NCBI GenBank assembly: GCA_963729715.1
Contig: CAVSPA010000003.1
Coordinates: forward strand, 64,001 to 128,000
Reading direction: 5' to 3'
Source of the DNA: an uncultured delta proteobacterium
GTDB lineage: Bacteria; Desulfobacterota; Syntrophia; Syntrophales; UBA2185
Length of the DNA: 64,000 bases
In this document: piece by piece, positions 11,701 to 36,132 of the stretch
Numbering within the stretch: position 1 is the first letter of the stretch
How the letters are laid out: the number at the start of each line of letters is the position of its first letter
Notes under the pieces: generated by a model
Told to the model about the DNA's origin: nothing
Databases searched by the model: none
What the model saw: the letters and a program-made list of their open reading frames with translations, nothing else
Position numbers and translations under genes: made by a program

Positions 11701-11938
11701 TCAATAATACTTTCTCTGGCAAGGGCACTCGCCATGCTATTAATGTCACCCTATTATCACTGGACTTTTATGGCCTCTCGGGTAATTGCCTTGCAATATA
11801 AAATTTAGCATAGTCTGTTTCAAATAGACCCGGTGGAACTAAATTGTTAATGAATGGCCCCCCTTGCCCCGATCCAAAACAATCACACATTGAAACAAGG
11901 GGGGCTCTTCAGGAGATTTCAAATAGTCGACCATTTCT

Positions 11939-12766: not shown

Positions 12767-12943
12767 CAGTGTCCTTTCTTCTGCGTATATTAAAATATCC
12801 GATTCACCGCGGCTGTAAATTTTCTCCTCGGCATTATGTAACCCAGGATATTGTTTGTCTCTATTGCAGGGTTTACCATAGATGCTGTGACTTAACCGGT
12901 TTATAGGTACCCTTCTCATTTACAATTGCGAAATCACCCTTTA

Positions 12944-13157
12944 TTAAGCTTTTCTTGCCCACTCAAGCAGCCGACAGTCCTTTTTAATGCTTTTTATACT
13001 GTCTGCCATCTCCTTCAGTGTCTTTACCGTGGCAGCATCCGGCAGGTTGGTGATTTCATCCGATTCAAACAACACCAGCTCAATGTCATCCACTTTGCCT
13101 GCCAGAAAGTTGACGTTAGGCAGGAGTTCCGACGGAATAGGGAAAACGGTTTTTCAG
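12944..13157 (-). pseudogene. cbiR: Relic of cobamide-remodeling phosphodiesterase CbiR N-terminus
   Basis: Manual translation LKNRFP / (frameshift) [41 protein letters not shown] matches recalled CbiR-family N-termini; located between btuB and cbiZ. Confidence 0.6.
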
Positions 13158-13170
13158 AAACCCGAATCCC

Positions 13171-15276: not shown

Positions 15277-15321
15277 AGGACGTTTCTCCTTTCCCCCTCG
15301 GGAATAAAGTTATTTGGTCCA

Positions 15322-15475
15322 TCAGAAGAGTGTCCTGGCTTGCGGCTTTCTCCTACTCTCCACGCCTTCCCGATCTTCCCTATATGGAAGACCAGTGGCA
15401 TCCTGTGGATTTCGTTCCGCTCACAGTTGCGGGGCAGCGCCGGAGTTGGACCGGCTTCCTCCCTCCAATGGATGT
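15322..15475 (-). ncRNA. Cobalamin riboswitch (upstream of btuB; overlaps the end of btuD)
   Basis: Minus strand GGAAGCCGGTCCAACTCCGGCGCTGCCCCGCAACTGTGA...GCCACTG...GGGAAGGC...AAGCCAGGACAC (B12 box). Confidence 0.92.
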
Positions 15476-16251
15476 GAACTCAGAAGAGTGACACGTGGCT
15501 GACCGGTCACCGGATTCCTGTCGACTGTTACATTCGTTTCATAAACTTCCTTAATGTTTGATTCGTCAATTACTTCGTCAGGACTTCCCATGCAGTGTAT
15601 ACAACCGCTTCGTAGAAGAATAATCCTGTCACAATACAGCGATGCTAAATTGATGTCATGTGTTACGGCAATCACCGTGAGCGCCTGCTCTTTGTTTAAA
15701 GTCTTTACCAGATCAAAAAAATCAATCTGATGTTTTATATCCAGAAAGGCTGTAGGCTCGTCCAGGAGCATGATCTGTGGCTCCTGCGCGAGAGCCCTGG
15801 CTATCAAAACTCTCTGACGTTCTCCGCCGCTCAAGGCATTCATGCTCCGGTTCATCAGGGAAAGGGTATCCGTCATTTCCATGGACTGGTGGGCAATTCT
15901 GAAGTCTGTTTCTCCTTCAAATCTCCATTTGCTTAAATGCGGCGCCCTTCCCATCAGAACGATCTCCTGGACCGTGAAGGGAAAGATCATTGGGGAGTCC
16001 TGAGAGACAACGGCAATAGTTTTTGCAAGATTCCCCCTTTTGAGCTTTTTACAAGTAGTACCGTTGATCCATATTTCCCCTTCCTGTGGTTTGAGGATAC
16101 CGTCGATGACGTTAAGAAGGGTTGTCTTGCCGGAGCCGTTGGGGCCGAGTATTCCCCAAAACTCTCCCTTATTCACTTCGAAAGAGACATTCTTTAGAAC
16201 CCAGTGTTCGTTGTATCTGAATCCGATCTGTTCAAGTTTGATTATGGACAT
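15421..16251 (-). CDS. btuD: ABC transporter ATPase (cobalamin/Fe-siderophore type)
   Basis: GPNGSGKT, LSGGERQRV, LLDEPT, THDINLA. Confidence 0.9.
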   Translation of the reverse strand: MSIIKLEQIGFRYNEHWVLKNVSFEVNKGEFWGILGPNGSGKTTLLNVIDGILKPQEGEIWINGTTCKKLKRGNLAKTIAVVSQDSPMIFPFTVQEIVLMGRAPHLSKWRFEGETDFRIAHQSMEMTDTLSLMNRSMNALSGGERQRVLIARALAQEPQIMLLDEPTAFLDIKHQIDFFDLVKTLNKEQALTVIAVTHDINLASLYCDRIILLRSGCIHCMGSPDEVIDESNIKEVYETNVTVDRNPVTGQPRVTLLSSHPLEGGSRSNSGAAPQL

Positions 16252-16254
16252 AGA

Positions 16255-17349
16255 TCAGACGGCCCTCCTGCGTAAGAGGTAGATGAAATAGGGAGCCCCG
16301 CACATTGCAGTAATTACGCCCACCGGCAACTCGGCGGGGGCGATGATCGTTCTGGCGATGGTGTCGGCCACAATAAGAAATGAACTGCCAAAAAGCAAAG
16401 AAGAGGGAAGCAGCAGTCTGTGATCTGAGCCTAACAACATCCTCATCATGTGCGGAATGATCAGACCGACAAACCCGATGATGCCGCTTACCGATACCGC
16501 TACTCCTGTTACGAGAGATGCGGCAAGGAGGAGAATCTTCTTCGTTTGTTCCACATTCACACCAAGTTGCATTGCTGTTTCTTCGCCGGTGACAATGAGG
16601 TTTAGGTGTCTCGAGTAGATATAAATGACGATGAACCCGGATATCAGAAAGAGGCCGGTCAGCATTATCTCATTCCATTCGGCAAGGCTCAGGTCTCCCA
16701 TCATCCAGAACATGACACTATGGAGATTTCTATCGCTGCTAGTGAAAATCAGGAACATGATCAGGGCAGTGAAAAAGGCATTCACGATAACGCCTGCCAG
16801 GAGAAGGGTGGTGGAGTGGATTTCTTTTTTCGTTCTGGCAATTCCGTAGACCAGGATGATCGTGAGCAAGGCGCCTAAAAAGGCCAGCCCGGGAATTCCC
16901 AGAGGAATAATACTTATTCCCGTTATTATGGCAACTATGGCTCCTGCGGCTGATCCGCCTGATATCCCTAAGATATAAGGATCTGCAAGGGGGTTGCGGA
17001 GAAGTCCTTGAAATACAACACCGGCTACTGAAAGGGAAGCGCCAACAATTCCGGCAAAGATGATCCTGGGCAGACGAATGGAAAAAAGGATCGTCTTTTC
17101 CATCGGAAGAAGACTGGTGTTTCCTTCATACCAGCCTGACAGTAATCGCTTGAGGATAGAAAGCGTACCAATCTCGCTTGATCCAACTAACATGGAACTT
17201 GCCGAGACAACGATAATAACCGCCAAAAAAAAGAGGCTAACCCGAATGACCCGGGAGAGAGTTACAACCTTATCAGCCTTGCTATTGGTTATCGCTAAAA
17301 TTGAAATAGAGGAAAGAATAAAAATAGGTGAGAAATAAGATCTAAGCAA
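16255..17349 (-). CDS. btuC: FecCD/BtuC-family ABC permease (start uncertain)
   Basis: IRLPRI, LLRNPLADPYILGISGG, SGIIGFVGLIIPH, ELPVGVITA; TTG start after a GGGAGGG RBS. Confidence 0.9.
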   Translation of the reverse strand: MLRSYFSPIFILSSISILAITNSKADKVVTLSRVIRVSLFFLAVIIVVSASSMLVGSSEIGTLSILKRLLSGWYEGNTSLLPMEKTILFSIRLPRIIFAGIVGASLSVAGVVFQGLLRNPLADPYILGISGGSAAGAIVAIITGISIIPLGIPGLAFLGALLTIILVYGIARTKKEIHSTTLLLAGVIVNAFFTALIMFLIFTSSDRNLHSVMFWMMGDLSLAEWNEIMLTGLFLISGFIVIYIYSRHLNLIVTGEETAMQLGVNVEQTKKILLLAASLVTGVAVSVSGIIGFVGLIIPHMMRMLLGSDHRLLLPSSLLFGSSFLIVADTIARTIIAPAELPVGVITAMCGAPYFIYLLRRRAV

Positions 17350-17373
17350 TGTCCCTCCCGCGAGGATAATCAC

Positions 17374-17516
17374 GATGGACTGGTCTTCCGGCTTCGGGCA
17401 ACCTACTCACCCGCCTTCCCATCACGAACTGATCATGACAGTGGCTCTTTGGGTTTTCGTTCCCTTCACGGCTACGGGGCAGCGGGGGCTTTTAACCCCT
17501 CTTCCGCTAATCCACG
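17374..17516 (-). ncRNA. Cobalamin riboswitch (upstream of btuC)
   Basis: Minus strand GGAAGAGGGGTTAAAAGCCCCCGCTGCCCCGTAGCCGTGA...GCCACTG...GGGAAGGC...AAGCCGGAAGACC. Confidence 0.92.
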
Positions 17517-17598
17517 TGCATTCGCTTTTTATTTATAACAGCTCTGACATTGCTTCATAATAAAGAAAGAGCTATTTGTCAAGAGCAAATAGAAAGTT

Positions 17599-18459
17599 TC
17601 AATACTCTCTCAGAAAGCTCGCTATCTCATCGATTCCAGCAATAGCTGTGGGTGCCAGTCTGTATAGCGCTTCACTCGTGTAATAGATACGTCCTTTCTT
17701 GACGGCATCAAGCATGCCAAGCCTTCTTAACAGGCTCTTTGAACTTTCCTTGGTCATTATACCTTTCCCCATAAAAATGATATCGGGGGAACGGCGGATA
17801 AGCTCCTCAATAGAATATTTGGGGTATCGTGAACCTGCATCGGAGGCTATATTCTGCAATCCCAGGAGCTTGAAGGCATCGTCAATGACAGTTTTGGGTC
17901 CTGCAACAACCAGGGGTTCTGGTTGAATTATGAAAATCGCCTTTTTGTTAAAATAGCGAGGTGGGGATTTCTGGATATTCCTCTCGTACTTGCGAATCTG
18001 CCTCTCGATCTTTTCCGCCCTTTTGAAAGCCTGATCTCTTATACCAAGAACGACCCCTAAATCACGTATGCCCTGTGGCAGTTCCACAAGACGTTTTGCT
18101 CTAAATACGTACGTGTTAATACTGAGCTTCTTCAATCTACTCCTGATTTCCATAGGATTACCCTCATCGGCCATAATGACCAGATCGGGCGCAGCAGCAA
18201 TAATGGCCTCCAGAGATGGATTCGAAAAGGCGCCGATTTTCGGTTTTTCTTTAGCCCGTGGGGGATAATCACAATAAATGGTAACCGCTACGATCCGGTC
18301 TTCGAAGCCAAGGTCATAGAGGATCTCTGTAATAGAGGGTGCCAGAGAGACGATCCTTCCCGGTGGGGCAGAAAAGGCAGTACCGGAAAGATAAACAGTT
18401 AAAAACATGATGAGAAAACAAGCCTTCATCATGACGAGAAGTTTGTGTGAAGTTTCCAT
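17599..18459 (-). CDS. btuF: Periplasmic cobalamin-binding protein
   Basis: RIVSLAPSITEILYDLG, VTIYCDYP, SIEELIRRSPDII; start taken at ATG 18459. Confidence 0.9.
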   Translation of the reverse strand: METSHKLLVMMKACFLIMFLTVYLSGTAFSAPPGRIVSLAPSITEILYDLGFEDRIVAVTIYCDYPPRAKEKPKIGAFSNPSLEAIIAAAPDLVIMADEGNPMEIRSRLKKLSINTYVFRAKRLVELPQGIRDLGVVLGIRDQAFKRAEKIERQIRKYERNIQKSPPRYFNKKAIFIIQPEPLVVAGPKTVIDDAFKLLGLQNIASDAGSRYPKYSIEELIRRSPDIIFMGKGIMTKESSKSLLRRLGMLDAVKKGRIYYTSEALYRLAPTAIAGIDEIASFLREY

Positions 18460-18592
18460 GGCATACTTTCCTCTGCCTATCCGAACCAGCCTATCCAAAA
18501 TACACATATTGAGAGCTTTAAAATAGATTGAAAGTTTTGCAGAAGGGATTTGACCTGCCCCCAGAACATTTACAACATCCGGAGTTAGAGTT

Positions 18593-19480
18593 CTACTTTC
18601 TCTCGCCGATCCCGGCAAGCGCAGCCCTGTAGAACTCAAAACCCTTCAGGTGACGTCCTGAAGCTCCCATGTAATGCGCCCTGTACTCAGTTGAGCCTAA
18701 GTCCGCGAGGAGCGTAAATCCGCGCTTGGTCAAATAACTGGAAAGCTCCTCGGGGTGGAGGCCGAATGTCCATTCCTCGCCGGATTTTCGGAGAGTGGCG
18801 GGCACGCGTCCCATCTCCCCGAAATTTATAGAACCGTCAAGCAGGCCGCCGTGAATATAAGTAAACAGGAGCTTGCTTCCGGGTGCTGACAGTGACTTTA
18901 TTGATTTCAAGGTAATGTCTACGGCCTCCTTTGAAAGGTAGTGCATCACCCCTTCCCAGAGAAAAAATGCTGGTTTTACGCGGTCGAAGCCGGAGTTTTC
19001 CAGTGTTGTCGCGAAGTCCTGCCGGTTAAAATCCACTTCCAGCATGGTTATATTGTCCGGGATTGAATTTATAAGATGCATCAGGCGCTTGATCTTAACG
19101 GTTCGAGTGCCTGGATGATCCAGTTCGAATACACGGGTTAGCCCGATCCCGGGTAGCCTGTAGGCCCGGCAGTCATACCCGGCCCCCAGGATAACTACCT
19201 GGGTAACACCCTCTTTGAGCGCATCGCAAAGCTGCTCGTCTATCCAGCAGGTACGGCCGAGGTGTGCCGTTCTGACTCCCGGCCATTTCACGTCTATATA
19301 AAAAGGCACGAGCCAGCCTATCAAAGGCACCCGCGACAAAAGGTAGGCGTACTTCAAGCGGCCCAAAAATCCGGCGGCGAGATGGTCCTCAAAGAGGCGT
19401 TTGCCGGGTTTGCGGGACGACTCGGTGGCACGGAATAGTGCGTTGAACTCGGCGGTTCGGCTGGCTGATTTAATATTCAT
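18593..19480 (-). CDS. SAM-dependent methyltransferase (LCM/TIGR00027-like)
   Basis: QVVILGAGYDCRAYRL, FELDHP, FLWEGVMHYL. Confidence 0.88.
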   Translation of the reverse strand: MNIKSASRTAEFNALFRATESSRKPGKRLFEDHLAAGFLGRLKYAYLLSRVPLIGWLVPFYIDVKWPGVRTAHLGRTCWIDEQLCDALKEGVTQVVILGAGYDCRAYRLPGIGLTRVFELDHPGTRTVKIKRLMHLINSIPDNITMLEVDFNRQDFATTLENSGFDRVKPAFFLWEGVMHYLSKEAVDITLKSIKSLSAPGSKLLFTYIHGGLLDGSINFGEMGRVPATLRKSGEEWTFGLHPEELSSYLTKRGFTLLADLGSTEYRAHYMGASGRHLKGFEFYRAALAGIGERK

Positions 19481-19508: not shown

Positions 19509-20048
19509 TCAATGCTTGTGCATTTTTTCCATTGCTGATGCGGACACGGCCATCCGGAATTCCGTCTTCTTCCCATTCACCATGACTGCGATGGAATAGG
19601 TCCCATTGGGCATCACCACATTATTGCCGTAATGCGTGGATTGCGGCCCCTGACCGATGGCCTGCATGACAACAACAGGAACATCCACAACTGCGCCTTT
19701 CGGCTTTCCTTTGTCGTCGAGCAATTGGAAATTCATACTGACCGTTGCGTTGGTTATGGCTTTGCCTGTCTTCGCGTCGAATACGTGCACGACAAGATGA
19801 TGGTTGGGATGCGAAGCCGCATCAATCGCGATGGGCTTGGCACCTCCCATGACCAACATCCCTTCTTTCACATGACTGACGGCAACTTCATCTGCTGTAA
19901 AGAACGGCTCAGCCGGCAGCACGTGCAACTCTACCCGAAGGCCATCCATGGTCGCTGTCTTCATCATGTCTCCGGCCCTGACAGAAACCGCGCATAGGAT
20001 CATAATGATGAGTGCTGCAGCTAATAAAAGATTTGAGCGTTTTTTCAT
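19509..20048 (-). CDS. Periplasmic Met/His-rich probable metal-binding protein (P19/FetP-like)
   Basis: Signal peptide; NHHLVVHV and THYGNNV motifs; C-terminal MEKMHKH. Confidence 0.6.
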   Translation of the reverse strand: MKKRSNLLLAAALIIMILCAVSVRAGDMMKTATMDGLRVELHVLPAEPFFTADEVAVSHVKEGMLVMGGAKPIAIDAASHPNHHLVVHVFDAKTGKAITNATVSMNFQLLDDKGKPKGAVVDVPVVVMQAIGQGPQSTHYGNNVVMPNGTYSIAVMVNGKKTEFRMAVSASAMEKMHKH

Positions 20049-20227: not shown

Positions 20228-20965
20228 TTACAATATCCTTGTTACAGCAAAACGGTTATCCCTATCTGACAGATTAAGGGCCTGTGCGGAATCCAGGCGT
20301 GAACTGGCTACCAGATTGAGATGTCGCCGGCTGACCTCCTCCGATAAGGCCATCTGTCGCTGTAAGGGCTGCGGATAAGGCTGGCCGGGCACAGGGATAT
20401 ATCCCATGATGTGAAACGGGATGTTCCGGTCAATTGCTGCCAACCAGGCAGCGATTGCCTCAACCTGATCGACATCCACAAGACCCGGTATAAACACCAC
20501 GTTAATCTTTATGTCCATTCCCGCTCCATATGCGGCGGCAACATTTTGGAAGATGGTTTCTCTTTCCCGCCCTGTGAGTGCGAGGTGAAGATCATTGTCC
20601 CAGGCTTTTAACCCCACATTCGCCCCGTCAAGATAAGGCAGAGGAAGGCTGCTGCCGTTGGTGTGGCCAAGCTTGGTTCCGACTCCGAGTTCCTCCTTTG
20701 CGAAGCGGAGCATTTCGGGCAGGTCCTTCGCCACTGTGGGTTCTCCACCCATGAAATAAAGGTTTTTGATAGGCAGTTGGCGAAGAGCTTCCTTGATATC
20801 CGCCGTTTTCAAATACCCGTCAGGTTCGGGGTAGGCTAGACCGGGCCTTCCCGTAGGACCACTGCGGAGCCTGTAACTGCATGTCGGGCAACGGAAGGTG
20901 CACCCGTAGTTGTGGACAGTCGCGAAATTATGATGCTCATTGTAGGTGACTTTGTAAAATGCCAT
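20228..20965 (-). CDS. Radical SAM protein (activating-enzyme-like)
   Basis: GCTFRCPTC (CxxxCxxC), MGGEPT, HTNG. Confidence 0.9.
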   Translation of the reverse strand: MAFYKVTYNEHHNFATVHNYGCTFRCPTCSYRLRSGPTGRPGLAYPEPDGYLKTADIKEALRQLPIKNLYFMGGEPTVAKDLPEMLRFAKEELGVGTKLGHTNGSSLPLPYLDGANVGLKAWDNDLHLALTGRERETIFQNVAAAYGAGMDIKINVVFIPGLVDVDQVEAIAAWLAAIDRNIPFHIMGYIPVPGQPYPQPLQRQMALSEEVSRRHLNLVASSRLDSAQALNLSDRDNRFAVTRIL

Positions 20966-21040
20966 TATTCATTCCCTTCTATAGTCCTATAAAAAGGTCC
21001 TATGCTGTTTCATGTTTTATCATCCCTCAATCGACATAAT

Positions 21041-21661
21041 TCAAATTCCGCCATAGCGGGAGGCACTGATGATTGGTCTGCTCAGATACAAGCCGAGGGA
21101 GGCGCCTATCATTGATCCTCCTATCCCTTGCGCCGTCTGGATGGCAATATACCAAGGTGCGTAAAATTGATGCCAGATAAAAGGGGCAGAAAAACAGTAA
21201 AAATAAAGGTAAACAGTAAGCCCCCGGAGAAACCCCGCGCCGAGAGCATTTCTTATGGTTTCCAGGTAGCTTTTAGTGACAAGAAAATACAATTCCAGGA
21301 CGAAACCAGCCAGAAGGGCGTAAGGCCACCACAAGGGATTTACGCCGCTGGAGATTGTTTGGGAGAGGAGACTGTGACCGCAGATTATGAGAGTGGCCGT
21401 CCCTGCCCGTGGAATGAGGCGGATGCCGATGAATAGCATGGCCGTGTAAGGGATGGAAAAAAAGAACGATTGAATTATGGGTATCCGGCTTAGTCCGAAC
21501 TTAAATGGTAAAATGGCTATATAGAGAAGGCTGCAGAAAAGGGCTACGGTTACCAATTCCTGTATGCTGAAGGACGGGATTGCTTTGCGTGTCCGAAGGA
21601 GATGAAATACTATTCCCCCCAAGATGGCAATGAAGATGACAGAGCCTATATAAGGGTTCAT
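21041..21661 (-). CDS. Putative ECF transporter substrate-specific (S) component
   Basis: About 6 TM helices, 206 aa; overlaps the T-component stop by 4 bp; follows ECF A-A' and T genes. Confidence 0.7.
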   Translation of the reverse strand: MNPYIGSVIFIAILGGIVFHLLRTRKAIPSFSIQELVTVALFCSLLYIAILPFKFGLSRIPIIQSFFFSIPYTAMLFIGIRLIPRAGTATLIICGHSLLSQTISSGVNPLWWPYALLAGFVLELYFLVTKSYLETIRNALGAGFLRGLTVYLYFYCFSAPFIWHQFYAPWYIAIQTAQGIGGSMIGASLGLYLSRPIISASRYGGI

Positions 21662-22449
21662 GATAAATGCCCCTGGTACAGAATGAGAATAATCATGCCC
21701 ACTGCAGAGAAGCCTAAGACAGCCCAGTCCCGCAGGGAGAATCTCAGTTCTCTTATCTTGGTCCTCTTTCCTGTGAAGGCCCTTACCTCTGCAGCAAGGG
21801 CGATGCGACGGGCGTTCCTCAGGCTGTCTATGATGAGGGGCGGCAGGAGGTAGCGGAAGGCCCTGAACCCGCCCCGTACTCCCTTTACGTCAAGTCCCCG
21901 CAGCTTCTGGGCGAGGAGAATTCTTCCCGCCTCATCCATCAGGGTAGGGAGGAAACGGATGCTGACCGTGACGACAAACCCGATCCGTTCAGGAACGCCG
22001 AGACCCTCCATGCCGAGGAGGAGATCGGAGGGGTAGGTGGACATGACGATAGCTGCGCTCAGGAGCATTGCGGAAAACAGCCGGAGACTCTGCAGCACTC
22101 CGTAAATAATACCTTCCTGGTACAGGGCAATCCCTCCAGTGATGCTTCCCAGCATACCTGAATCCGGTGTAAGGATCGTCAGAATCGTGGTCCGGGGTTC
22201 GAGGGCATAAAAAAATCCCTGTGAAATCATTGTAAAACAGAGGGCCGTGGCCATGAGCATGATCATTGTCCGGACGGTTCGTCGAGCTGGACGAAGGTAT
22301 CCGAAGGCTGCTGCAACAGTTAAAAAAAGAAGCGACAACCCCGTCGGTGTCTTCAGGACAACAACAAGAATCGCTCCCATGAATCCCAAGATGATCTTGG
22401 ACCTCGGATCCAGGCGGTGTAGGAAAGTTTCTTTATCCAGATACTTCAT
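21658..22449 (-). CDS. ecfT: ECF transporter transmembrane T component
   Basis: LHRLDPRSK, RFLPTL, AQKLRG and AAEVRAF coupling motifs; true start ATG 22449. Confidence 0.9.
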   Translation of the reverse strand: MKYLDKETFLHRLDPRSKIILGFMGAILVVVLKTPTGLSLLFLTVAAAFGYLRPARRTVRTMIMLMATALCFTMISQGFFYALEPRTTILTILTPDSGMLGSITGGIALYQEGIIYGVLQSLRLFSAMLLSAAIVMSTYPSDLLLGMEGLGVPERIGFVVTVSIRFLPTLMDEAGRILLAQKLRGLDVKGVRGGFRAFRYLLPPLIIDSLRNARRIALAAEVRAFTGKRTKIRELRFSLRDWAVLGFSAVGMIILILYQGHLS

Positions 22450-23797
22450 CGCTGATAATCCTGCCATTGTCGAGAGTGATCCGACGCCCAGCTGCGGATG
22501 CGGCATGTTCGTTATGGGTTGAAAAGATAACAGTCCCCCTCCTGTTGGCATAGTCGTAGAGGAGGGAAAACAGTTCATGCCAGCTTCTGCCGTCCAGACC
22601 TGTTGTCGGTTCGTCAAGGATGAGTATTTCCGGCTCCATAGCCATAACGGACACGACAGCTAAGATCTGCCGCTGTCCCCGTGAGAGAGTCTGAGGATGG
22701 CAGCGTGAGTGGGCTTTAAGACCTGCTATGCCTAGATAACGCTCTACTTCTGGTTTCTTTCCGAGGTGGGAAGGCCCGAAGGCAACCTCTTCTGCCACCG
22801 TCTGTGCAAAGAGCTGTTCGTCGGGATTCTGAAAAAGAAAACCCACGCGGCTCACCAGAGATTCCAGTGTGGGTCCGGGAACGCCCAGAATCGCGATTCC
22901 CCCCTGGAGGGGCCGGAGGAGCCCTCCAAGGATCTTCAAAAGCGTTGTCTTTCCAGAACCGTTATCTCCCTTCAGCGCCACGACTTCCCCTCGTTGAATA
23001 GTCATATCTATATTATCTAAAATATTTTTCTCCCGGTCGTAGCCGAAGCTGATTTCTTTCAGGGATATCACCGTTCCTGCAGGTGCCGCCGTTGTTTTTC
23101 TTGCGGTCATGGGGCTGCTCATTGCCGTGCTGTTATTTACGATCCTTCCGTTTTCCAGGGTTATAATCCGGTCCATGAGGGGAAGATAATCTTCGTACTG
23201 GTGCTCTACCAGGACAATGGTCTTTCCCTTGTCTTTGAGATTCCTGATGATCTTTATGAACTCCTGCCTTCCCGCCCCATCCAAGTCCGTTGTGGGTTCA
23301 TCAAAAAGGAAAACCTGGGGACCCATGGCATAGACAGAGCTAATGGCCAGGCGCTGTTTCTGCCCTCCGGAAAGCTTGAAGGTCTCGCGACGCCGCAAAT
23401 CCCATAAATCCATGGATCGGAGAGCTTCGTCCCGGCGGCAGATGATCTCTTCCCGCGGCAGGAGCAGGTTTTCACAACCGAAGGCGACATCGTCCTCCAC
23501 GCGCATCATAAAGACCTGACTCTCAGGGTTCTGAAAAACTGTTCCTACCGTCCGAGCGATCTCCCGGAGGGGTACCTCCGACGGCAGAAAACCGTTCAAC
23601 CGGACCGATCCAATGGAGGCTCCGGCAAAAACGTGAGGAATGAGACCATTGAGACAGTATAGAAAGGTCGACTTGCCCGATCCCGAAGCACCGCGGACTA
23701 ACACCGCTTCGCCCGATTCAATCCGCAGACTGATATCCTGCAAAGCGGGAGTATCCATGCCGGGATAGGTAAAGCTGAAGGAGTCAATGGCAATCAT
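22433..23797 (-). CDS. ECF transporter fused double ATPase (A-A')
   Basis: Two Walker A motifs (GASGSGKS, GDNGSGKT), FQNPESQ/FQNPDEQ, two DEPT. Confidence 0.92.
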   Translation of the reverse strand: MIAIDSFSFTYPGMDTPALQDISLRIESGEAVLVRGASGSGKSTFLYCLNGLIPHVFAGASIGSVRLNGFLPSEVPLREIARTVGTVFQNPESQVFMMRVEDDVAFGCENLLLPREEIICRRDEALRSMDLWDLRRRETFKLSGGQKQRLAISSVYAMGPQVFLFDEPTTDLDGAGRQEFIKIIRNLKDKGKTIVLVEHQYEDYLPLMDRIITLENGRIVNNSTAMSSPMTARKTTAAPAGTVISLKEISFGYDREKNILDNIDMTIQRGEVVALKGDNGSGKTTLLKILGGLLRPLQGGIAILGVPGPTLESLVSRVGFLFQNPDEQLFAQTVAEEVAFGPSHLGKKPEVERYLGIAGLKAHSRCHPQTLSRGQRQILAVVSVMAMEPEILILDEPTTGLDGRSWHELFSLLYDYANRRGTVIFSTHNEHAASAAGRRITLDNGRIISDEVSG

Positions 23798-23855
23798 ATC
23801 GAGTAAATCTCGCTGGCATGACTAAAGTCTTGTGTACCAGATTTAGTTAATCCAA

Positions 23856-26078
23856 TTAAATTTTCACTTCCAGCCCGCCAAACCACGATCTGCCCGGCGC
23901 CTTGTAATAGTTAAAGTAAGAGTTGTCAAAGATATTATCAACGGAAAATGACAATGTGGCAAATTTGGTCACCTTATATGAAACCTTCGTATCTGCTGTA
24001 AAAGCAGGATCCATCGACGTGTAAACACCGTTTATCGTATCCCTGTTCTGGTCATCACCATAGCGTTTGCCGACATATCTGCCCGTGACAGATGCCATGA
24101 ACGGTCCTATTTCGCACTCCGCTCCCACATTAACCATCGTATCCGGCAGATAAGTCAATCTTTTGCCCACTGATAATGGCTCAGCGCTGTTTTCCGTTAT
24201 CCTGGCGTCCGTGTAGGTATAATTAGCAAACAGCCTTAACAATTTTTCAAACCGCTGCTCAAGCTCAAGCGTAATCCCTTTGCTTTCAGCCTTCCCTGCA
24301 TTTATCTGCTTCTGTAGCGTTGCAGAAACTGTCTCTAAATAAATAAGGTCTTTCAGATAGTTGTCAAAATATCTGGCAGTGAACTTCGCGCCCTCCCACA
24401 GCACCTGCACGACAGCCACATCCCATGAGGTGTCTGTTTCGGGTTTCAGGTCTGGATTGCTGGCAAACGTAATACCATAGTATTGCCAAGTCCCGTAAAG
24501 CTCATAAACTGTTGGCCCTCTGAATGCCTGTCCCGCGGATGCCTTTAATGTGGTTACTTCAAACGGTTTATAGACGACTGCTAACTTTGGACTGAAATAG
24601 TTGTCACTCCTGGAGTCATATGTCGTCGCAAAACCTCCGGTGCCGAACTGATTGGCATAACCATCGTATGTTTCCCACCAGTCCTCTCTGAAACCGATGT
24701 ATGCAGTGAGATTGGGGAGGATCAATATTTCGTCCTGGATAAAAGCGGCATATGCCCTGTCCTTCCCCCCCGAATTGTATGTGAGTGCGGTATTGGAGGT
24801 TTCATCCGTAAAGTTGGTCAGATTATATTGCGAGGTGTTAGCCGAATCTGTTTTGAATGATCCTCCAAAGGTAAGGACATGCCTGGTAAAAAGGGGTACT
24901 GTGAACTGAAGGTCGGCAGAATAATTCTGGGAAGGGGTGGATGAAACCTGGCCGGGGCCCCCGTTTAAAGTCGTAGCAGATGTATAGCCGGGGCTTACAT
25001 ACCATGATTTTACATAGTCATTAAGACCAAGCGTAAGCTTTGTTTTTACGTTTCCAATCTCGGTTTCATATTTGATATAATATTTATTAACTTCTTCCCC
25101 GCCTGACCCATCGACATAGCTGCTTTGATTCACGAAGCCATATGAATAAACGGGTTGGCCCGAGGCGTTACTTAAATAAGTATGAGGATCATCGTAATTA
25201 TACTTGAGGCGTGTTCTCATAAAAGATAAGCTTAACTTTGAGTCAGGTGTTAAATCTAATCTCGTTTTGATGCTCAGGCTGTCGTCCCACCATGTGTTGT
25301 CTCCTTTATCACCTATGAGGTAACTGGTCTTTCCCCCGGATGTGCCATTATCGGTAGTATATGAATAACCTGTAATTCCGGCAGGGGGTTGCGTCGACTG
25401 AACGTTAAGATCTTTTGGATAGCCATTTGTTGCCTTGTATCCATAACTCACAAGCAGGCTTATTTTGTTGTTGAGTTTATCGCCGTAAGACACATAATAC
25501 TTTTGAAAATCATCCAGGCTTTCTCCCCTGTGCCAGCTTGAGCCGTAACCGCTTATTACGGTGAATTCTCTCTTCTCCGGCATCTGCGTAATCATATTCA
25601 CGACACCGCCCATGGCGTACCCACCGTAAAGGCTTGACGAGGGGCCCTGAACAACCTCGACCCTTCCCACATTTTCTGTTGGCAACGCTGTAAAACTGAC
25701 CATTCCATCATAGGCATTATTAAGCGGCATCCCATCCATCATTATCAAAGTCCTGTTTTGTCCAGGAATTCCGTTCAATGTAATAGAGGGCAGAGCATCC
25801 ATGAGATTCTGTCGATTAACAAACACACCCGGCGTTGTATTTAAAGCATCGTCGATTGTCGTTATGTTCCTTGTCTCCATTTCCTTTTTCGTGACAACAT
25901 TCACGCTTCCCGGCGCCGATTGCAGCTCTTTTTCTGTCCTCGTTGCCGTGACTACAATATCCTCAAATTTCGTCGCATCTTTTTCTTTTTTCTCAGGTTC
26001 CGTCACATTGTTTTCTTCAGCAAAGGTGTTTGACGAAAATAAAATCAATAAGAGCACCAGTAAAAATCTTTTAAACAT
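23856..26078 (-). CDS. TonB-dependent receptor
   Basis: EDIVVTATRT TonB box, RVEVVQGPSSSLYGGYAMGGVVN plug, NPDLKPET, PGRSWFGGLEVKI; RBS GGAGG before ATG 26078. Confidence 0.92.
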   Translation of the reverse strand: MFKRFLLVLLLILFSSNTFAEENNVTEPEKKEKDATKFEDIVVTATRTEKELQSAPGSVNVVTKKEMETRNITTIDDALNTTPGVFVNRQNLMDALPSITLNGIPGQNRTLIMMDGMPLNNAYDGMVSFTALPTENVGRVEVVQGPSSSLYGGYAMGGVVNMITQMPEKREFTVISGYGSSWHRGESLDDFQKYYVSYGDKLNNKISLLVSYGYKATNGYPKDLNVQSTQPPAGITGYSYTTDNGTSGGKTSYLIGDKGDNTWWDDSLSIKTRLDLTPDSKLSLSFMRTRLKYNYDDPHTYLSNASGQPVYSYGFVNQSSYVDGSGGEEVNKYYIKYETEIGNVKTKLTLGLNDYVKSWYVSPGYTSATTLNGGPGQVSSTPSQNYSADLQFTVPLFTRHVLTFGGSFKTDSANTSQYNLTNFTDETSNTALTYNSGGKDRAYAAFIQDEILILPNLTAYIGFREDWWETYDGYANQFGTGGFATTYDSRSDNYFSPKLAVVYKPFEVTTLKASAGQAFRGPTVYELYGTWQYYGITFASNPDLKPETDTSWDVAVVQVLWEGAKFTARYFDNYLKDLIYLETVSATLQKQINAGKAESKGITLELEQRFEKLLRLFANYTYTDARITENSAEPLSVGKRLTYLPDTMVNVGAECEIGPFMASVTGRYVGKRYGDDQNRDTINGVYTSMDPAFTADTKVSYKVTKFATLSFSVDNIFDNSYFNYYKAPGRSWFGGLEVKI

Positions 26079-26228
26079 TCGTTTTCCTCCCGTTACTTTA
26101 CATCCGGCCCCCTTTCTGATATAAGAGATATCAGAAGGGTGATGTTCTTTGAGTGTTATCCTTCCGAGGCGGGGAGTCCTAGCCAAAGGTAGCTCCCTGC
26201 CTCCCTTTTAATTCAATGATATCTTTAA

Positions 26229-26609
26229 TCATCCCTTTCTCTCGGTTTGTATTGCAACTTTTTTGAACCCCCGGCTGTTCACAATATCAAGTACATCTAC
26301 AAAAATCTGGAGAGCCACGTCTTTATCAGCCCGGACAATGAGGGGGGTGTTTTTATCAATATCCCTGATTTTCATGCCTAATTCTTCCAGGGCGACTTTC
26401 GTGGAGTTAAAATAGATCACACCACTTTGATCTATGGATATTATTTGCCTCTTGATGGCCTCCGTCTGTGTTTCTGATGCCTTCGGTAGAGACACGGAAA
26501 TCATCCCTGTGGCAATAAATGTCGATGTCATAAGAACGATGGTTAAAAGCACAAGCATCACATCAACCAGAGGGATGACGTTGATGTAATCAAATTCCTT
26601 TTCTTCCAT
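26229..26609 (-). CDS. exbD: Biopolymer transport protein ExbD
   Basis: [23 protein letters not shown]. Confidence 0.95.
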
Positions 26610-27024
26610 TTGTTATCTCCCAACGCATCATGATAACTTTCACTTTTCTCAACAGGAGGTTGTAAAAAACCACGGAAGGTATGGCAACCACAAGGCCCAC
26701 CGCCGTTGCCTTTAATGCGAGGGCAAGACCAATCATTATCTTCCCCGTGTCAAGGAACCCCTCTTGGCCTATTTTGTAGAAAGTGAGCATAATGCCTAGG
26801 ACAGTGCCAAGCAGTCCGACATAAGGGGCATTGCTCCCTATGGTAGCTATGATATGGAGCTTCTTTGTAAGCTGAAGCTCCAGCTCTTTTCTATCCCGGA
26901 ACCGTTCTATCTTAATTTTTCTGTACGTAAGATGCCTTTCGACGGCGATTGAAACTGCAACGATACTCATAACAATAAGGAGTCCTATGACTCCATAATC
27001 AATTATTGCACCAAGATATTCCAT
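26590..27024 (-). CDS. exbB: Biopolymer transport protein ExbB
   Basis: [37 protein letters not shown]. Confidence 0.95.
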
Positions 27025-27046
27025 TCTCGTTGTCCCTTAAAATTTC

Positions 27047-27691
27047 TTATTCTAAATTGAACCGAACAGAGAGGATTGCTTTGGAAGGCACTTTTTCCCC
27101 ATTGCTATAAGCTGGAGAAAAGGCGGATTTTTTTATTGCCGCAACAGCGGCTTCTGTGAAGCCAAATCCCGATGTTTCTATAACTTCAATGTCCTGTAAA
27201 GTACCGTTTTTGTCGATCAGCAGTTTAAGAACGACCCTTCCCTCTTTGCCCAATCTCCTTGCTAATAAAGGATAAACCGGCATCTCCCGATGGATAAACG
27301 CTGGGGCGCCTGAATTTCCGGATACCGTTTCCGCGACATCCCGATTTACCGCTTTTCCTATGCTTGTGATTTCCGTTTTCGCGATGGTCAGATTTTCTGC
27401 TCTTTGCACTGCGGCCGTAACCTGCTTTTCATTCAATAAAAACTCATCTTGCCGGTCTTTTATTTCCATGATCTCTGGCTCGTTGATGCTTTGTACATGT
27501 TCTGCCTTAGATCGCGTTATCGATTTCACTTCCCTTTGGCTGGTTGAAGATAAGGCTTCCTGTTGCGCGAAACTGATATAGATGGTTTTCATATAGGGAA
27601 TCGCATTCGCAACAGGTATCGTGAGAAATAAAATCAGAAACGCGGCATGAATCGCCAAAGAAGTGACTATCCCTATACGCTGCTCATTCAT
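27047..27691 (-). CDS. tonB: Energy transducer TonB
   Basis: SLAIH TM; PVYPLLARRLGKEGRVVL C-terminal domain. Confidence 0.9.
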   Translation of the reverse strand: MNEQRIGIVTSLAIHAAFLILFLTIPVANAIPYMKTIYISFAQQEALSSTSQREVKSITRSKAEHVQSINEPEIMEIKDRQDEFLLNEKQVTAAVQRAENLTIAKTEITSIGKAVNRDVAETVSGNSGAPAFIHREMPVYPLLARRLGKEGRVVLKLLIDKNGTLQDIEVIETSGFGFTEAAVAAIKKSAFSPAYSNGEKVPSKAILSVRFNLE

Positions 27692-27741
27692 ACTGGTTCA
27701 GCCTTGCCTCTGTTTCGCTGGTGATATTTTTACCACTATTT

Positions 27742-27778
27742 GTGTTACTATATTAACAACCGTGCTACCCACTGACAA
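27742..27778 (-). promoter_or_regulatory. Sigma70 promoter with overlapping NikR-type operator for the tonB-exbBD-TBDR-ECF operon
   Basis: Minus strand TTGTCA-N17-TAATAT; plus strand GTGTTAC-N13-GTGCTAC at 27742-27768. Confidence 0.75.
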
Positions 27779-27797
27779 AAAAATAATACCTATTTCT

Positions 27798-28211
27798 TTA
27801 TTTGATTTTACCGGTACCGGAGATGCTTAATGATCCGTGCATGACTCCCTTATGAGCTTTTAATGTGTCGGACAGTTTGTTGACCTTCTTGGAATTCCCT
27901 TTTACCGCCACGATCTCCAGGCAATTATGATGATCCAGATGGATATGTTGTGAGGACTGGATGATGTCCTGATAGTCGTGCTGGACGTCAATAATTGCAT
28001 TCAAAAGGTTGCGCTGATGATGGTCATAGATGAAAGTGATTGCCCCGGCAACTTCCCGGTCTTCTTCCAAATCTTTCTTGAGCAACTCCTGACGGATTAA
28101 ATCACGAATGGCCTCCGACCGGTTTGAATACTTACGCCGCTTGATCAGGTTATCAAAATTATCAAGCAATTCATTTTCTAATGAAATCCCAAATCTGACT
28201 ATATCAGACAT
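27798..28211 (-). CDS. nikR: Nickel-responsive regulator NikR
   Basis: VRFGISL ribbon-helix-helix, NRSEAIRDLIR, YDHH, HIHLDHHNCLE. Confidence 0.97.
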   Translation of the reverse strand: MSDIVRFGISLENELLDNFDNLIKRRKYSNRSEAIRDLIRQELLKKDLEEDREVAGAITFIYDHHQRNLLNAIIDVQHDYQDIIQSSQHIHLDHHNCLEIVAVKGNSKKVNKLSDTLKAHKGVMHGSLSISGTGKIK

Positions 28212-28222
28212 GCCTTACCTCG

Positions 28223-28268
28223 GTATTACTAATGTAGCATTCGTAGCACAATTGCCTATACGTGTCAA
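28223..28268 (-). promoter_or_regulatory. nikR promoter with autoregulatory NikR-type operator
   Basis: GTATTAC-N13-GTAGCAC at 28223-28249; minus strand TTGACA-N17-TACGAA overlaps it. Confidence 0.65.
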
Positions 28269-28340
28269 GCAGAATATGTATGATTACTATTACATGGCAT
28301 AATGTTATTTTAGCCGACAGCCGTTTATTTATCTGTCAAA

Positions 28341-28389
28341 ACCACTGACATTGTCAGTGGTGGGGTGTGGGGGCGGAGGCCCCACACCT
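28341..28389. repeat. Pair of GC-rich hairpins (REP-like or terminator)
   Basis: CCACTGACA-T-TGTCAGTGG and GGTGTGGGGGC-GGAG-GCCCCCACACC. Confidence 0.5.
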
Positions 28390-28516
28390 TAAGTGAACCA
28401 ACAATGTTGGTGAACAATATTTTAGAATAGCCGTTTCAACCCTTATCAGGCAAGGCGAAGGACATTGTCCGTAGGCTTGCCGCATTTTGAAGGCCACCGA
28501 CAAGGTCGGTGGTAGT

Positions 28517-28792
28517 TTACTCCTTCTTTTTGGTGTGTGTATGTTCGTGGATCTCTTCATCATGGAGCGGATGATCGTGCTCATGGGTACCATGATCTCC
28601 CTTATGTTCATGGTCATGCACATGAGAGTCCCCGATATGTTTATGCTCATGCAAATGTTCGTGCAGATGTTCGTGGGCGTGTTTATGCTTATGATCGTGG
28701 CTGTGCTTCGTATCACCATGGGCGTGGTCATGCTCGTGGTCATGGGTGTGCGGATGTCCATGTAAATGCTTGTGCTCATGCTTTCCTTTCAT
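28517..28792 (-). CDS. Small histidine-rich protein (putative Ni/metal storage or chaperone)
   Basis: RBS GGAGG, 91 aa, 35 His mostly in (HX)n runs; followed by hairpin CCACCGAC-AAG-GTCGGTGG at 28494-28512. Confidence 0.8.
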   Translation of the reverse strand: MKGKHEHKHLHGHPHTHDHEHDHAHGDTKHSHDHKHKHAHEHLHEHLHEHKHIGDSHVHDHEHKGDHGTHEHDHPLHDEEIHEHTHTKKKE

Positions 28793-31966: not shown

Positions 31967-32854
31967 TTATGTGGGTGTCGCAGTCCTCCGGGTACGGACA
32001 ATCTTGGCGACAATCCAGGTGATTGCGTAAAATGCACCCAAGAGAACGACATCCGCTGGACCGACAGGCAAATCCAATCTATATGCGATGCAGAAACCGA
32101 GGAAAGCGGCCACGCCACCGATAGAAGGGGCCAGCAGCGTAAACTGGTACATGTTGCGAACAACGAGGTGCGCCGTCAAAGCAGGAATCAGAAGGAAACC
32201 GAACGCGATCAGCGGGCCGACGCTGAGCACTGCCATCGAAACAGTCAGGCCGATCAGTAAATAGAGCAGCACGTCCCAGAAAATGACATTCTTGCGCAGG
32301 ATGATTGCCATCTCGCGGTCAAACGAGACAAGGAGCAACTCCTTGTGGAACAGTCCCAGCACTATGATGACGAGCGTAAGCGTGGCCGCCGTCAGCCCAA
32401 GATCGAAATTGGAGATGGCGATGACCTCTCCTTTCAGCATATCGAGCCAACCGATTTCGCCGTAAGGGTTTTTTGACAGCAACAGAATGCTCATCGCGGC
32501 GGCCACCACGTATGCGGTGCCAAGTCGGCCTTCGGGTTGTCCACGCCCGCCTCTTTCCAAAAACGCCAGCACCATGATCGCGGTCAACGAGAATGTAATT
32601 GAGCCGACAAACGCAAGCGTGTGCGCGCTGTGTGAGCTATGTTCGGACAGATTGAATCCGAGCCACAATGGAAGCGAGAGGGCGATAGCAACGCCTGTCG
32701 AAGAAATCTGCGGCAGCGCCACGCCCAAGAACACCAGTCGGCGCAGCACGAGAAACACTCCCACGAGCGGGCAGGCGAGACCAACGAGCACGCTGGTGTA
32801 TATCGAATTGCGCAGGAGAAAATCGGGTGAGAGAATCTGATAAAGTGTTTCCAT
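31967..32854 (-). CDS. Zn/Mn-type metal ABC transporter permease
   Basis: LVGVFLVLRRLVFLGVALPQ, KELLLVSFDREMA, DLPVGP. Confidence 0.9.
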   Translation of the reverse strand: METLYQILSPDFLLRNSIYTSVLVGLACPLVGVFLVLRRLVFLGVALPQISSTGVAIALSLPLWLGFNLSEHSSHSAHTLAFVGSITFSLTAIMVLAFLERGGRGQPEGRLGTAYVVAAAMSILLLSKNPYGEIGWLDMLKGEVIAISNFDLGLTAATLTLVIIVLGLFHKELLLVSFDREMAIILRKNVIFWDVLLYLLIGLTVSMAVLSVGPLIAFGFLLIPALTAHLVVRNMYQFTLLAPSIGGVAAFLGFCIAYRLDLPVGPADVVLLGAFYAITWIVAKIVRTRRTATPT

Positions 32855-32855
32855 A

Positions 32856-33569
32856 TTAGGCTATCTCCATTTCAAACATTTTCGCCATGCGTTCAGCAGT
32901 TAGAAGTTCTTGAGTTGCGCCGTGGGACATCTTGCCTTCGTGCAGCCAGATGACTTGCTCAGCATAGTGACGCACCGCTGCAAAGTCGTGTGTGACGAGA
33001 ATGACCGTAATTTTCCTTTCTTTGTGGATCTGCGAAATAAACTCCAGCACCAAATGCTTTGTTTCACGGTCCACACTCACGGTGGGCTCATCCAGCACCA
33101 ATACATCGGGGCGCGTCGTCAGGGCGCGGGCAATGAGCACACGCTGTTTCTGGCCGCCTGAGAGTTCGGCAAAGCGCCGATGGGCAAGCCCCTCAGCACC
33201 TGCCGCACGCAGGCATTCGCGAGTGAAGGCGCGTTCGACCTGGGGGACGATACGTCCCGGCCGGACTCGCCCGTACACGCCCATAAGGGCGACGCCGAAC
33301 CCCGTGAGCAGATAAATCGGGTCGAACTGAAAAGCTTGAGGGACGTAGCCGAACTCGAGCGGTGCACCTGTCGATCCGGTATTGATGCGACCCGCGACTG
33401 GTGGAAGCAGTCCAAGCACCGTCTTGATCAGCGTCGATTTCCCCGAGCCATTGGCACCGAGAATGGCGGTGAAACTGGCACGGGCAATAGAGAGTGAAAT
33501 GCCGGACAGCACAGGTTGGTTGTTATAGCCGATACTCAGGTTGTACAGCGTGATGAGTGCTTCATTCAT
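32856..33569 (-). CDS. Metal ABC transporter ATPase
   Basis: GANGSGKS, GYVPQ, LSGGQKQRV, VTHD. Confidence 0.92.
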   Translation of the reverse strand: MNEALITLYNLSIGYNNQPVLSGISLSIARASFTAILGANGSGKSTLIKTVLGLLPPVAGRINTGSTGAPLEFGYVPQAFQFDPIYLLTGFGVALMGVYGRVRPGRIVPQVERAFTRECLRAAGAEGLAHRRFAELSGGQKQRVLIARALTTRPDVLVLDEPTVSVDRETKHLVLEFISQIHKERKITVILVTHDFAAVRHYAEQVIWLHEGKMSHGATQELLTAERMAKMFEMEIA

Positions 33570-33623
33570 AGTCTGTTGTGTGTGTCCGCCCGGAAAGCAC
33601 GGGCGGACACATTCTCCTTATTT

Positions 33624-34556
33624 TTATTTTCTCGATTGTACGGCAGTGACCGTTGTATTAATAATGTAATCCATCATCTTGATGTACGTTTCCGTATGCG
33701 GTACGCCGCCCGGCATAATGGGGAGAGTTATCATGGTTGCGCCGGTCTGCTCGGCGATTCTTTTTGGCACCTTTTCAGGAAACTGCGGCTCGCGCACGAC
33801 GATGGCAACATGCTCGGCCTTCATTGCTGTGACCAATTCCTGGATGTGACGCGGGGTCGGGTCGATACCCGGCTTCAGCTCAATCGTGCCGAAATAGTTC
33901 AAGCCGAAGCGTGCCGCGAAGTATGGCCAATGCTCGTGGTAGGATACAAACTTCGTCCCCCTGAGTGGCTTAACCGCTTTCTCCCATTCGGCAATCTTGG
34001 CATTGAGTTTGGTGAGATAAGCGTCGCGATTGCGCGTGAATTCAGCTTTATGCTGCGGCGCAAACGCCACCAGTGCGTTATAGATGTTCGCGATCGCAGT
34101 CTCTGCCAATACTGGATCGAGCACGTAGTGCGGATTGCCGTAGGGATGAACGTCGCCTTCGGAATGATCGGTTGATTTGGGCACGTCGCGCGGGATGATC
34201 CCCTTGGAGCAGTCAACATAACCGGGCTTATATATCTGAATACGCGGGTTCTTGCTCGCCTCCAGGAGAGCGGGAAGGAAGGCGTGCTCGCAATCAAACC
34301 CCACCAGGATCATCAGGTCCGCCCGGTTCATCATCGGCACGAAGCTCGGTTTCATCGGCACCCCGTGGGTGTCTTCGACGCCGGTCGCCAGGCTGTGAAC
34401 GTCGACCAGGTCGCCGCCGACGGCACGCGCAAAATCCGCCAGGTCGGTAAGCGTTGTAACGACGCGGATCTTCTCGGCGTGAGCGGGGGTTGCCCACCCG
34501 CACAATACACCGGTGAGCGCGATGATAAATAATAGACAATATAACTTAGATTTCAT
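33624..34556 (-). CDS. Metal ABC transporter substrate-binding protein (ZnuA/TroA family)
   Basis: EDTHG, GDVHPYGNPHYVLDP, SYHEHWPYF, ELKPGIDPTPRH. Confidence 0.92.
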   Translation of the reverse strand: MKSKLYCLLFIIALTGVLCGWATPAHAEKIRVVTTLTDLADFARAVGGDLVDVHSLATGVEDTHGVPMKPSFVPMMNRADLMILVGFDCEHAFLPALLEASKNPRIQIYKPGYVDCSKGIIPRDVPKSTDHSEGDVHPYGNPHYVLDPVLAETAIANIYNALVAFAPQHKAEFTRNRDAYLTKLNAKIAEWEKAVKPLRGTKFVSYHEHWPYFAARFGLNYFGTIELKPGIDPTPRHIQELVTAMKAEHVAIVVREPQFPEKVPKRIAEQTGATMITLPIMPGGVPHTETYIKMMDYIINTTVTAVQSRK

Positions 34557-34569
34557 ATTGAATTTCTCC

Positions 34570-36039: not shown

Positions 36040-36132
36040 TATAGACACCTCCATCGTTTTGCAAAGATAAAGTGCAACTGTTCAAACCTCTCTGTCGGTT
36101 TGGCAGCCTAAGACATTACTTGGATTGATAGA

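Follow-up and report, generated by a model that had tools for sequence, protein, structure and literature searches.

What does a bacterium import with an operon that joins a nickel-responsive repressor to a TonB-dependent receptor, an energy-coupling factor (ECF) transporter and a radical S-adenosylmethionine (SAM) enzyme? The question is raised by a stretch of 64,000 nucleotides (hereafter the window) from an uncultured delta proteobacterium of the Syntrophales (GenBank assembly GCA_963729715.1, contig CAVSPA010000003.1, positions 64,001 to 128,000), in which the minus strand carries all nine genes at 20228-28249 in the order nikR-tonB-exbB-exbD-receptor-ecfAA'-ecfT-S component-radical SAM. 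An initial annotation, made from the sequence without database searches, had listed this minus-strand string from nikR to the radical SAM gene, and Pfam and NCBIfam profiles bore out both the order and the families; the closest relatives of the operon are found in Syntrophales. We propose, with evenly balanced confidence and on grounds drawn from sequence, that the operon imports a nickel tetrapyrrole and releases the nickel by radical chemistry. When nickel is scarce, NikR would leave two operators and the TonB-powered receptor and ECF transporter would be made; these would import a nickel tetrapyrrole, in the likeliest case coenzyme F430 or one of its epimers shed by methanogens, and attack of the radical SAM enzyme on the macrocycle would then supply nickel to the nickel enzymes of the host. 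A nickel tetrapyrrole is the simplest substrate because the enzyme comes from a corrinoid-linked family with a nickel-controlled branch, which stands alone in F430 producers and goes with importers in non-producers. The parts of the proposal differ in strength: an organic nickel complex is very probable as the substrate, a tetrapyrrole is rather probable, an F430-type compound is an even call, and release of nickel by the enzyme, as distinct from repair or tagging of the ring, falls slightly short of even.

Its operators make repression of the operon by NikR highly probable. The repressor gene (27798..28211, minus strand, 137 aa) encodes ribbon-helix-helix and nickel-binding domains (PF01402 and PF08753) and scored 171.5 bits with NF003381 against a cut-off of 105, which identifies it as a NikR. 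Operator 1, a 7-13-7 palindrome at 28223..28249, lies 12 nt upstream of the nikR start and 13 nt 3' of a TTGACA hexamer (28268-28263), and compared with GTGTTAC-N13/14-GTAACAC, the motif published for NikR of deltaproteobacteria (PMC545781), it has 2 mismatches in 14 positions. Sites as close to the motif as operator 1 number seven in the whole 3.76-Mb genome. Operator 2 (27742..27768), which the initial annotation did not list, stands before tonB, is off the published motif at 3 of 14 positions and overlaps a promoter-like -35 (27778) and extended -10 (27750). In the relatives L002 and L003, a matching site is found 38 nt before the nikR match and another before tonB. When the genome was scanned with a first operator matrix of 30 sites, all from other genomes, the two operators of the operon ranked first and second (25.8 and 22.6); further matches fell on both flanks of a second nikR and in the leader of a nikM operon, and the third-ranked match, inside a coding region, looks false. 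The claim that a NikR-type operator covers the promoter is thus confirmed by the published motif, by the matrix ranking and by conservation; with a palindrome of deltaproteobacterial type that overlies the promoter and is kept in relatives, the operon belongs to the predicted NikR regulon. The available part of PMC3087415 shows no link of NikR boxes to CobN-like genes of Methanothermobacter.

The transporter itself does not look like a carrier of the bare ion. Energy for outer-membrane passage would come from TonB (27047..27691, PF03544, TonB_C), ExbB (26590..27024, PF01618, with TIGR02805 above cut-off) and ExbD (26229..26609, PF02472), and the receptor, with plug and barrel, occupies 23856..26078 (probable start 26078, likely 740 aa). 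The ECF transporter, recognised because one operon encodes its A, T and S components and from the fold of the last, comprises a fused ATPase A-A' (22433..23797, TIGR04520 and TIGR04521 above cut-off), a CbiQ/EcfT-type T component (21658..22449, PF02361, likely 263 aa, with start 22449 chosen to match relatives) and an S component (21041..21661), a 206-aa membrane protein of an unnamed family; all of these lie on the minus strand. The S component was modelled with a predicted local distance difference test (pLDDT) score of 89.7, and its best fold match was 5edl (Z 14.5, root-mean-square deviation (rmsd) 3.1, 171 aligned), which we take to be YkoE, followed by eleven S components of vitamin type or without assignment (Z 12.9 to 10.3) and, lower, by the metal-ion type 4m5c (9.8), CbiM (8.7), BtuM (8.3) and CbrT (6.6). 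The modelled fold is therefore nearer to vitamin S components than to the metal-ion type. From YkoE-type S components (PF09819) it differs by an identity of only 15-18%, an extra N-terminal helix and other conserved residues, and the likeness to 5edl sets no substrate because a shared fold gives none; some distant S relatives do match PF09819.

Sequence searches with the S component gave no Pfam or NCBIfam family above cut-off (the named S families YkoE, RibU, ThiT, BtuM, CbrT and Trep_Strep included), no PF01891 (CbiM) match at E up to 1, no match among PDB sequences at E up to 10 and no Foldseek match under 0.001; the top Atlas match was an unnamed cluster, with Trep_Strep at just 0.82. The N-terminal Met-His, which we take to be the NikM/CbiM metal ligand, is missing in the S family (the N-terminus differs in all 45 aligned members) and present in the NikM encoded elsewhere in the genome. 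Profiles, N-terminus and fold therefore speak against a plain NikM/CbiM homolog, the outcome that the initial annotation had named as fatal to its idea. The same alignment shows invariant aromatic residues (Trp, Tyr) and His164 in loop regions, and loops with Trp, Tyr and a single His would fit a flat metallo-macrocycle. The host genome also has a separate NikM-type ECF operon with a predicted operator, the second nikR mentioned above, and genes for NiFe-hydrogenase subunits, a carbon monoxide dehydrogenase (CODH)-family protein and a LarA-type protein. From the modelled fold and the presence of a NikM elsewhere, we read the transporter as something other than a bare-ion carrier. Distant S relatives were also seen in 11 of 301 Thermoproteota, in mixed contexts; at one of them, L277 (G674), the ECF operon that holds the gene also encodes a beta-propeller protein, and a split CobN/Mg-chelatase pair is transcribed divergently from it. 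A CobN-type chelatase neighbour as a clue to the S family was set aside as too thin, being seen at one of six distant loci inspected.

A GTDB scan for the close family of the radical SAM enzyme, evaluated for the best 80 of 139 loci, showed that the enzyme stays with a transporter. It stands beside a chelate transporter in 69 of the 80, in 17 of them after the same S-T-AA' module and in 52 beside a class III binding protein or a FecCD permease; the remaining 11 copies stand alone, nine in Methanomassiliicoccales and two at contig edges. The transporter type follows lineage, ECF in Syntrophales and other deltaproteobacteria, BtuCDF-like in Planctomycetes-Verrucomicrobia-Chlamydiae (PVC) bacteria and archaea. 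With two transporter types and one enzyme, the enzyme and not the ECF module is the constant part. Loss of this linkage would have spoken against the initial annotation; its inference of a nickel-organic substrate is instead supported by the linkage and by an S component that is not NikM/CbiM. A nikR gene falls within 27 of the 80 stretches, and sites for NikR recur in the leaders. The second matrix, a control for circularity, was built from 14 sites of eight loci, none of them in the test set; at a score of at least 10, and with leaders truncated by contig ends excluded, sites were found at 11 of 11 ECF loci, 14 of 43 loci of the ATP-binding cassette (ABC) type, 5 of 9 stand-alone loci and 2 of 33 corrinoid-context controls, so that by this measure the operators are conserved across phyla. 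In 50 host genomes, drawn from the 80 loci, NikR was matched in 43 and a NiFe-hydrogenase-like subunit in 42, and one archaeal enzyme copy lies divergently to nikR-hypA-hypD, which is followed by hypE and hypF. At the PVC loci a prepilin-type gene is present in addition, frequently with DUF3344, for which no meaningful solved relative was found.

The proteins that would meet the substrate first separate in the same way. Nickel-context receptors, the window receptor among them, form one group of 25 out of 32 rows (Shimodaira-Hasegawa-like approximate likelihood ratio test, SH-aLRT, 94; the program gave a long-branch warning), apart from riboswitch-controlled receptors and regardless of the inner-membrane transporter encoded downstream. 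The binding proteins split likewise, with 32 rows on one side (SH-aLRT 96), and the top solved relatives of the class III binding proteins paired with the enzyme include heme and B12 binders. By sequence, the two splits suggest a single class of substrate other than B12. The window receptor has no His between its FRAP-like and NPNL-like motifs, and so lacks the loop His that we take to be the motif of heme receptors, which sets it apart from the Chu/Hut type.

Tetrapyrroles are brought into view by the sisters of the enzyme. When 401 genomes of the host's phylum were searched, 12 matched and relatives at about 30% identity came to light, among them L102 and L103 (one genus), where the sister enzyme and a PF01902 ATPase accompany btuB-F-C-D under cobalamin riboswitches; other sisters are embedded in btuF-rSAM-btuC-btuD-cbiB-cobA-cobT-cobS strings. 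In metagenome loci (best 80 of 136, with cluster labels taken from one representative each), 38 of 80 had a corrinoid gene nearby (cbiB, cobA, cbiP, cobT, cobS, mutase/MeaB, dehalogenase, hgcA or B12-binding proteins), one had PF01902 only, 15 had BtuF/FecCD only, nine were of the nikR/ECF type with the same S family, and 17 had none of these; nikR and a corrinoid gene occurred together in none of the 80. The named protein matches of the corrinoid branch include Dehalococcoidales, and archaeal sisters are likewise found in corrinoid contexts: the enzyme family occurs in 36 of 301 Thermoproteota genomes, many copies in btu-cbiB-cbiZ-cobS surroundings. A first tree lacking extra archaeal rows did not resolve the branching among two nickel groups and the corrinoid group; with archaeal rows, all nickel-context copies made one clade (41 of 90 rows, SH-aLRT 98), and in a careful rerun the nickel clade held 28 of 55 rows (99/98), with corrinoid-context rows as outer branches. 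The set of rows for these trees was reduced both on identity and manually, a single long-branch row was left out, and no mixture model was used. The clade takes in both ECF types, the ABC type and the stand-alone archaeal copies, which appear at several points inside it. What is new here, on the evidence of neighbourhoods and trees, is that sister lineages sit in cobalamin-salvage operons or beside B12 enzymes and that the nickel copies are one nested clade.

Further observations were made on the sisters. The host's own copy (L100, G000:C7:305700-310400) lies between meaB and mutase in a string meaB - metallo-beta-lactamase fold - rSAM - methylmalonyl-CoA mutase family, which is kept in L145, L150, L167, L170, L174 and L188. 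In L108, L153, L155, L173 and L186 the sister gene lies directly 3' of hgcA-/hgcB-like mercury-methylation genes, with a MarR-type regulator upstream and an M24 peptidase downstream. Paired divergent sister copies, possibly a two-subunit enzyme, were seen in dehalogenase loci and archaeal B12-salvage loci (L141, L142, L144, L147, L152, L158-L160, L247, L250, L253, L261). The diphthamide-synthase-like PF01902 ATPase recurs beside the corrinoid-branch enzyme in L102, L103, L245, L247 and L258 and may amidate corrinoid side chains or serve in repair.

Among nickel tetrapyrroles, F430 is the one known from biology (PMC2667541). When cells die, free F430 is released and undergoes epimerisation, and salvage is named as no more than a possibility (PMC8549059). 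Without salvage its nickel would thus be lost. In Thermoplasmatota the enzyme was found in 13 of 251 genomes. It is carried by 7 of 35 mcrA-positive genomes, where mcrA marks methyl-coenzyme M reductase (MCR), and in none of these in an operon with a transporter; six of the seven have an operator about 65-70 nt upstream and one has convergent permease genes, and the four such carriers tested had no close binding-protein orthologue (at most 32% identity; control 63%). Among mcrA-negative genomes it is carried by 6 of 216, all beside binding-protein/permease genes and four with operators. In Thermoproteota, where 32 of the 36 carriers were classed by tree or profile score, mcrA was present in 10 of 11 nickel-clade carriers versus 1 of 21 other carriers, and five of the eleven nickel-clade copies stand alone. 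Transporter-less copies are almost confined to MCR-bearing archaea, often behind an operator; the MCR distribution as a whole is suggestive only. The speculation of the initial annotation about F430 has thereby gained independent support from the corrinoid-salvage sisters and the MCR-archaeal distribution, and it is still unproven. A wider picture can be offered tentatively, at somewhat below even confidence, in which syntrophs, PVC bacteria and archaea salvage F430, its nickel is stripped by an enzyme that evolved from an unrecognised corrinoid-processing family, and methanogens recycle their own damaged F430 with the same enzyme. Two side observations belong to these archaea: L280 (G402), titled Bathyarchaeota, has an mcr operon, a CfbD-like gene and a nickel-type ABC operon with nikR and larC, and in the related methanogens L202, L203, L204 and L211 the stand-alone enzyme is followed by a gene of the PNPOx split-barrel family, a fold that we take to include heme-binding proteins.

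The radical SAM enzyme (20228..20965, minus strand, 245 aa) has an intact CxxxCxxC, of which the three cysteines are invariant in an alignment of 52, and its motif and partial TIM barrel make it a member of the superfamily (PF04055 alone, one domain in the model). The initial annotation had compared it to ChuW/HutW, in which ring opening of a tetrapyrrole by a radical SAM enzyme frees the metal (PMC10114669). The functional logic of that analogy may hold; homology does not, and identity with the ChuW/HutW class C methyltransferases was rejected on the lack of a HemN/CpdH-like second domain and on the fold ranking. A glycyl-radical enzyme activase was likewise rejected (best NCBIfam score 42.5 against a cut-off of 250), and no glycyl-radical enzyme partner was found among conserved neighbour clusters of the 80 loci. 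Because the enzyme class differs from that of ChuW/HutW, ring repair or a protein target are live options. PMC5574268 lists an rdh-associated 'rdhI' with a corrinoid-modifying role, and this gene may represent the corrinoid branch of the family.

Several results weigh against nickel-tetrapyrrole import with radical nickel release. Gene content, operators, S fold, linkage and clade structure come from the sequence and its comparison, and the whole functional case built on them is guilt by association. The closest fold of the enzyme is pyruvate formate-lyase (PFL) activase (Z 19.6, rmsd 3.2, 208 aligned), which acts on a protein, with HemN far down the ranking (rank 35, Z 10.6), and most members lack the aromatic residue that usually precedes the third cysteine. 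The fold of the class III binding proteins is shared by the H. pylori nickel-binding protein (4ino, at lower rank). At the threshold used, 29 of 43 ABC leaders have no site, and no operator was seen at four Methanomethylicia-type loci; a NikR match is absent in 7 and a hydrogenase match in 8 of the 50 hosts, the sole cultured strain (L075) being among these. Of the Thermoplasmatota methanogens searched, 28 of 35 are without the enzyme, and six of the 10 MCR-bearing Thermoproteota keep a binding-protein/permease gene within 1.5 kb (two tested ones with a transporter gene also have a CfbD-like gene), for which reason an absolute rule that F430 producers lack the importer was rejected. The carrier genomes are partly incomplete and, being kin, give non-independent counts; the root of the enzyme trees rests on distant outgroup enzymes, and sampling of the sister set is biased because it was collected with our own profiles.

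Four other explanations were weighed. The operon may import a nickel complex other than a tetrapyrrole, such as a nickelophore, Ni-histidine or a nickel-pincer cofactor, with its ligand broken or altered by the enzyme. H. pylori is known to take up nickel in a TonB-dependent manner (PMC13367063), L005, L012, L043 and L078 have lar genes at their flanks, and the nearest solved receptors are generic (Cir, BtuB). We regard this as rather unlikely, as it leaves unexplained a clade nested among corrinoid-salvage enzymes and the stand-alone copies in MCR-bearing archaea, no ligand-synthesis gene is conserved among the 80 loci, and the lar linkage amounts to 4 of 80. It is unlikely, too, that the substrate is a nickel tetrapyrrole which the enzyme repairs or remodels, or that the enzyme targets a protein partner, with the nickel unreleased in either case. 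Such a role would agree with sister enzymes in operons that rebuild cobamides and do not destroy them, with the activase-like fold, with the benefit that methanogens would draw from repair of epimerised F430, and with the corrinoid-modifying 'rdhI' (PMC5574268), if that gene belongs to the family. Against it stand the nickel enzymes that the bacterial hosts carry. To our knowledge these hosts are non-methanogens without a use for intact F430, though the bacterial genomes were not searched for MCR.

A corrinoid or cobalt importer captured by a NikR-family regulator is suggested by the ancestry among B12-salvage genes and by a B12 operon directly downstream. That cluster (10930-18639, minus strand: BtuF-, BtuC- and BtuD-like proteins, a second receptor, CbiZ and TonB) has two cobalamin riboswitches (17361-17530 and 15308-15499), and such a cluster adjoins the nickel operon in L001, L002 and L015 too. 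The nickel operon at 20228-28249 has no cobalamin riboswitch and no cob/cbi genes, nickel-context receptors and binding proteins are separate from the B12-context ones, L099-L188 never combine nikR with corrinoid genes, and hyp and lar genes are the neighbours seen; we give this explanation little credence. Very improbable is an extra route for free Ni2+ in which the radical SAM gene is a passenger: His164, invariant in the close S family, could be enlisted for it, and it fails to account for an S component with no CbiM family match and no N-terminal Met-His, or for an enzyme that stays with two unrelated transporter types and keeps its operator when alone.

In its parts the nickel-tetrapyrrole system follows a known kind, metal-cofactor scavenging, and its likenesses are each partial. 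With the group I ECF transporters NikMNQO/CbiMNQO it shares A, T and S parts and NikR control through the same operator motif (PMC545781); it differs in an S component that is not of the CbiM family and has no N-terminal metal ligands, in the absence of NikN, in the fused A-A' and in the added TonB receptor and radical SAM enzyme, the true nikM being elsewhere in the genome. Chu/Hut heme uptake offers the same proposed logic of a metal-regulated receptor, an inner-membrane transporter and a ring-opening radical SAM enzyme (PMC10114669), whereas here the enzyme is single-domain, of 245 aa and activase-like, the regulator is NikR, and an ECF replaces an ABC transporter. BtuBFCD operons have sister enzymes inside, and many of them share with the nickel-type ABC loci the gene order binding protein - rSAM - permease - ATPase; the nickel type differs in having a NikR operator, no riboswitch, no cob/cbi genes and separate receptor and binding-protein clades. 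FrpB4/TonB2 of Helicobacter is a case of TonB-dependent nickel uptake under NikR, for which the available part of PMC13367063 mentions no ECF module or radical SAM enzyme. No description of the operon, the enzyme family or F430 uptake was found in a literature search outside whose coverage lay most subscription journals and supplements (e.g. regulon tables), and the system is not described in the available parts of PMC2667541, PMC11697101 and PMC7689651.

If true, the proposed import of a nickel tetrapyrrole would be the nickel counterpart of heme piracy and B12 salvage, would mean that metal passes from methanogens to partner organisms in digesters, peat and guts, and would constitute a biological sink bearing on F430 as a biomarker. 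Even with another substrate, the operon brings out two unnamed families, one of ECF S components and a widespread one of radical SAM enzymes with corrinoid and nickel branches, both directly assayable with known compounds.

Some genes and repeats around the operon remain to be mentioned. Downstream, a 179-aa protein with a signal-peptide-like start (19509..20048, minus strand; its sequence cluster occurs in 3 of 81 stretches) is restricted to the two closest relatives and for that reason is taken as a non-core part; a family search and a solved-structure search gave no meaningful match, and a resemblance to P19 is likewise unsupported by any meaningful solved relative. Upstream of nikR, a histidine-rich 91-aa protein (28517..28792, minus strand), possibly a nickel store or chaperone, has a second occurrence in L002 and none in 11 other loci checked. 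Between this gene and nikR lies a 198-bp repeat (28323-28521), of which 16 more full or partial copies with 92-100% identity occur genome-wide. At G000:C9:28322-28872 (L099), a partial histidine-rich gene is fused to the second half of a radical SAM gene, 97% identical to the window, and this remnant is either a deletion product of the window island or an assembly artefact. Finally, a ZnuABC-type transporter and a 494-aa gene without assignment (31967-36054, minus strand) form a stretch of raised GC (about 55%) that adjoins an IS110 transposase at 36736-38220.

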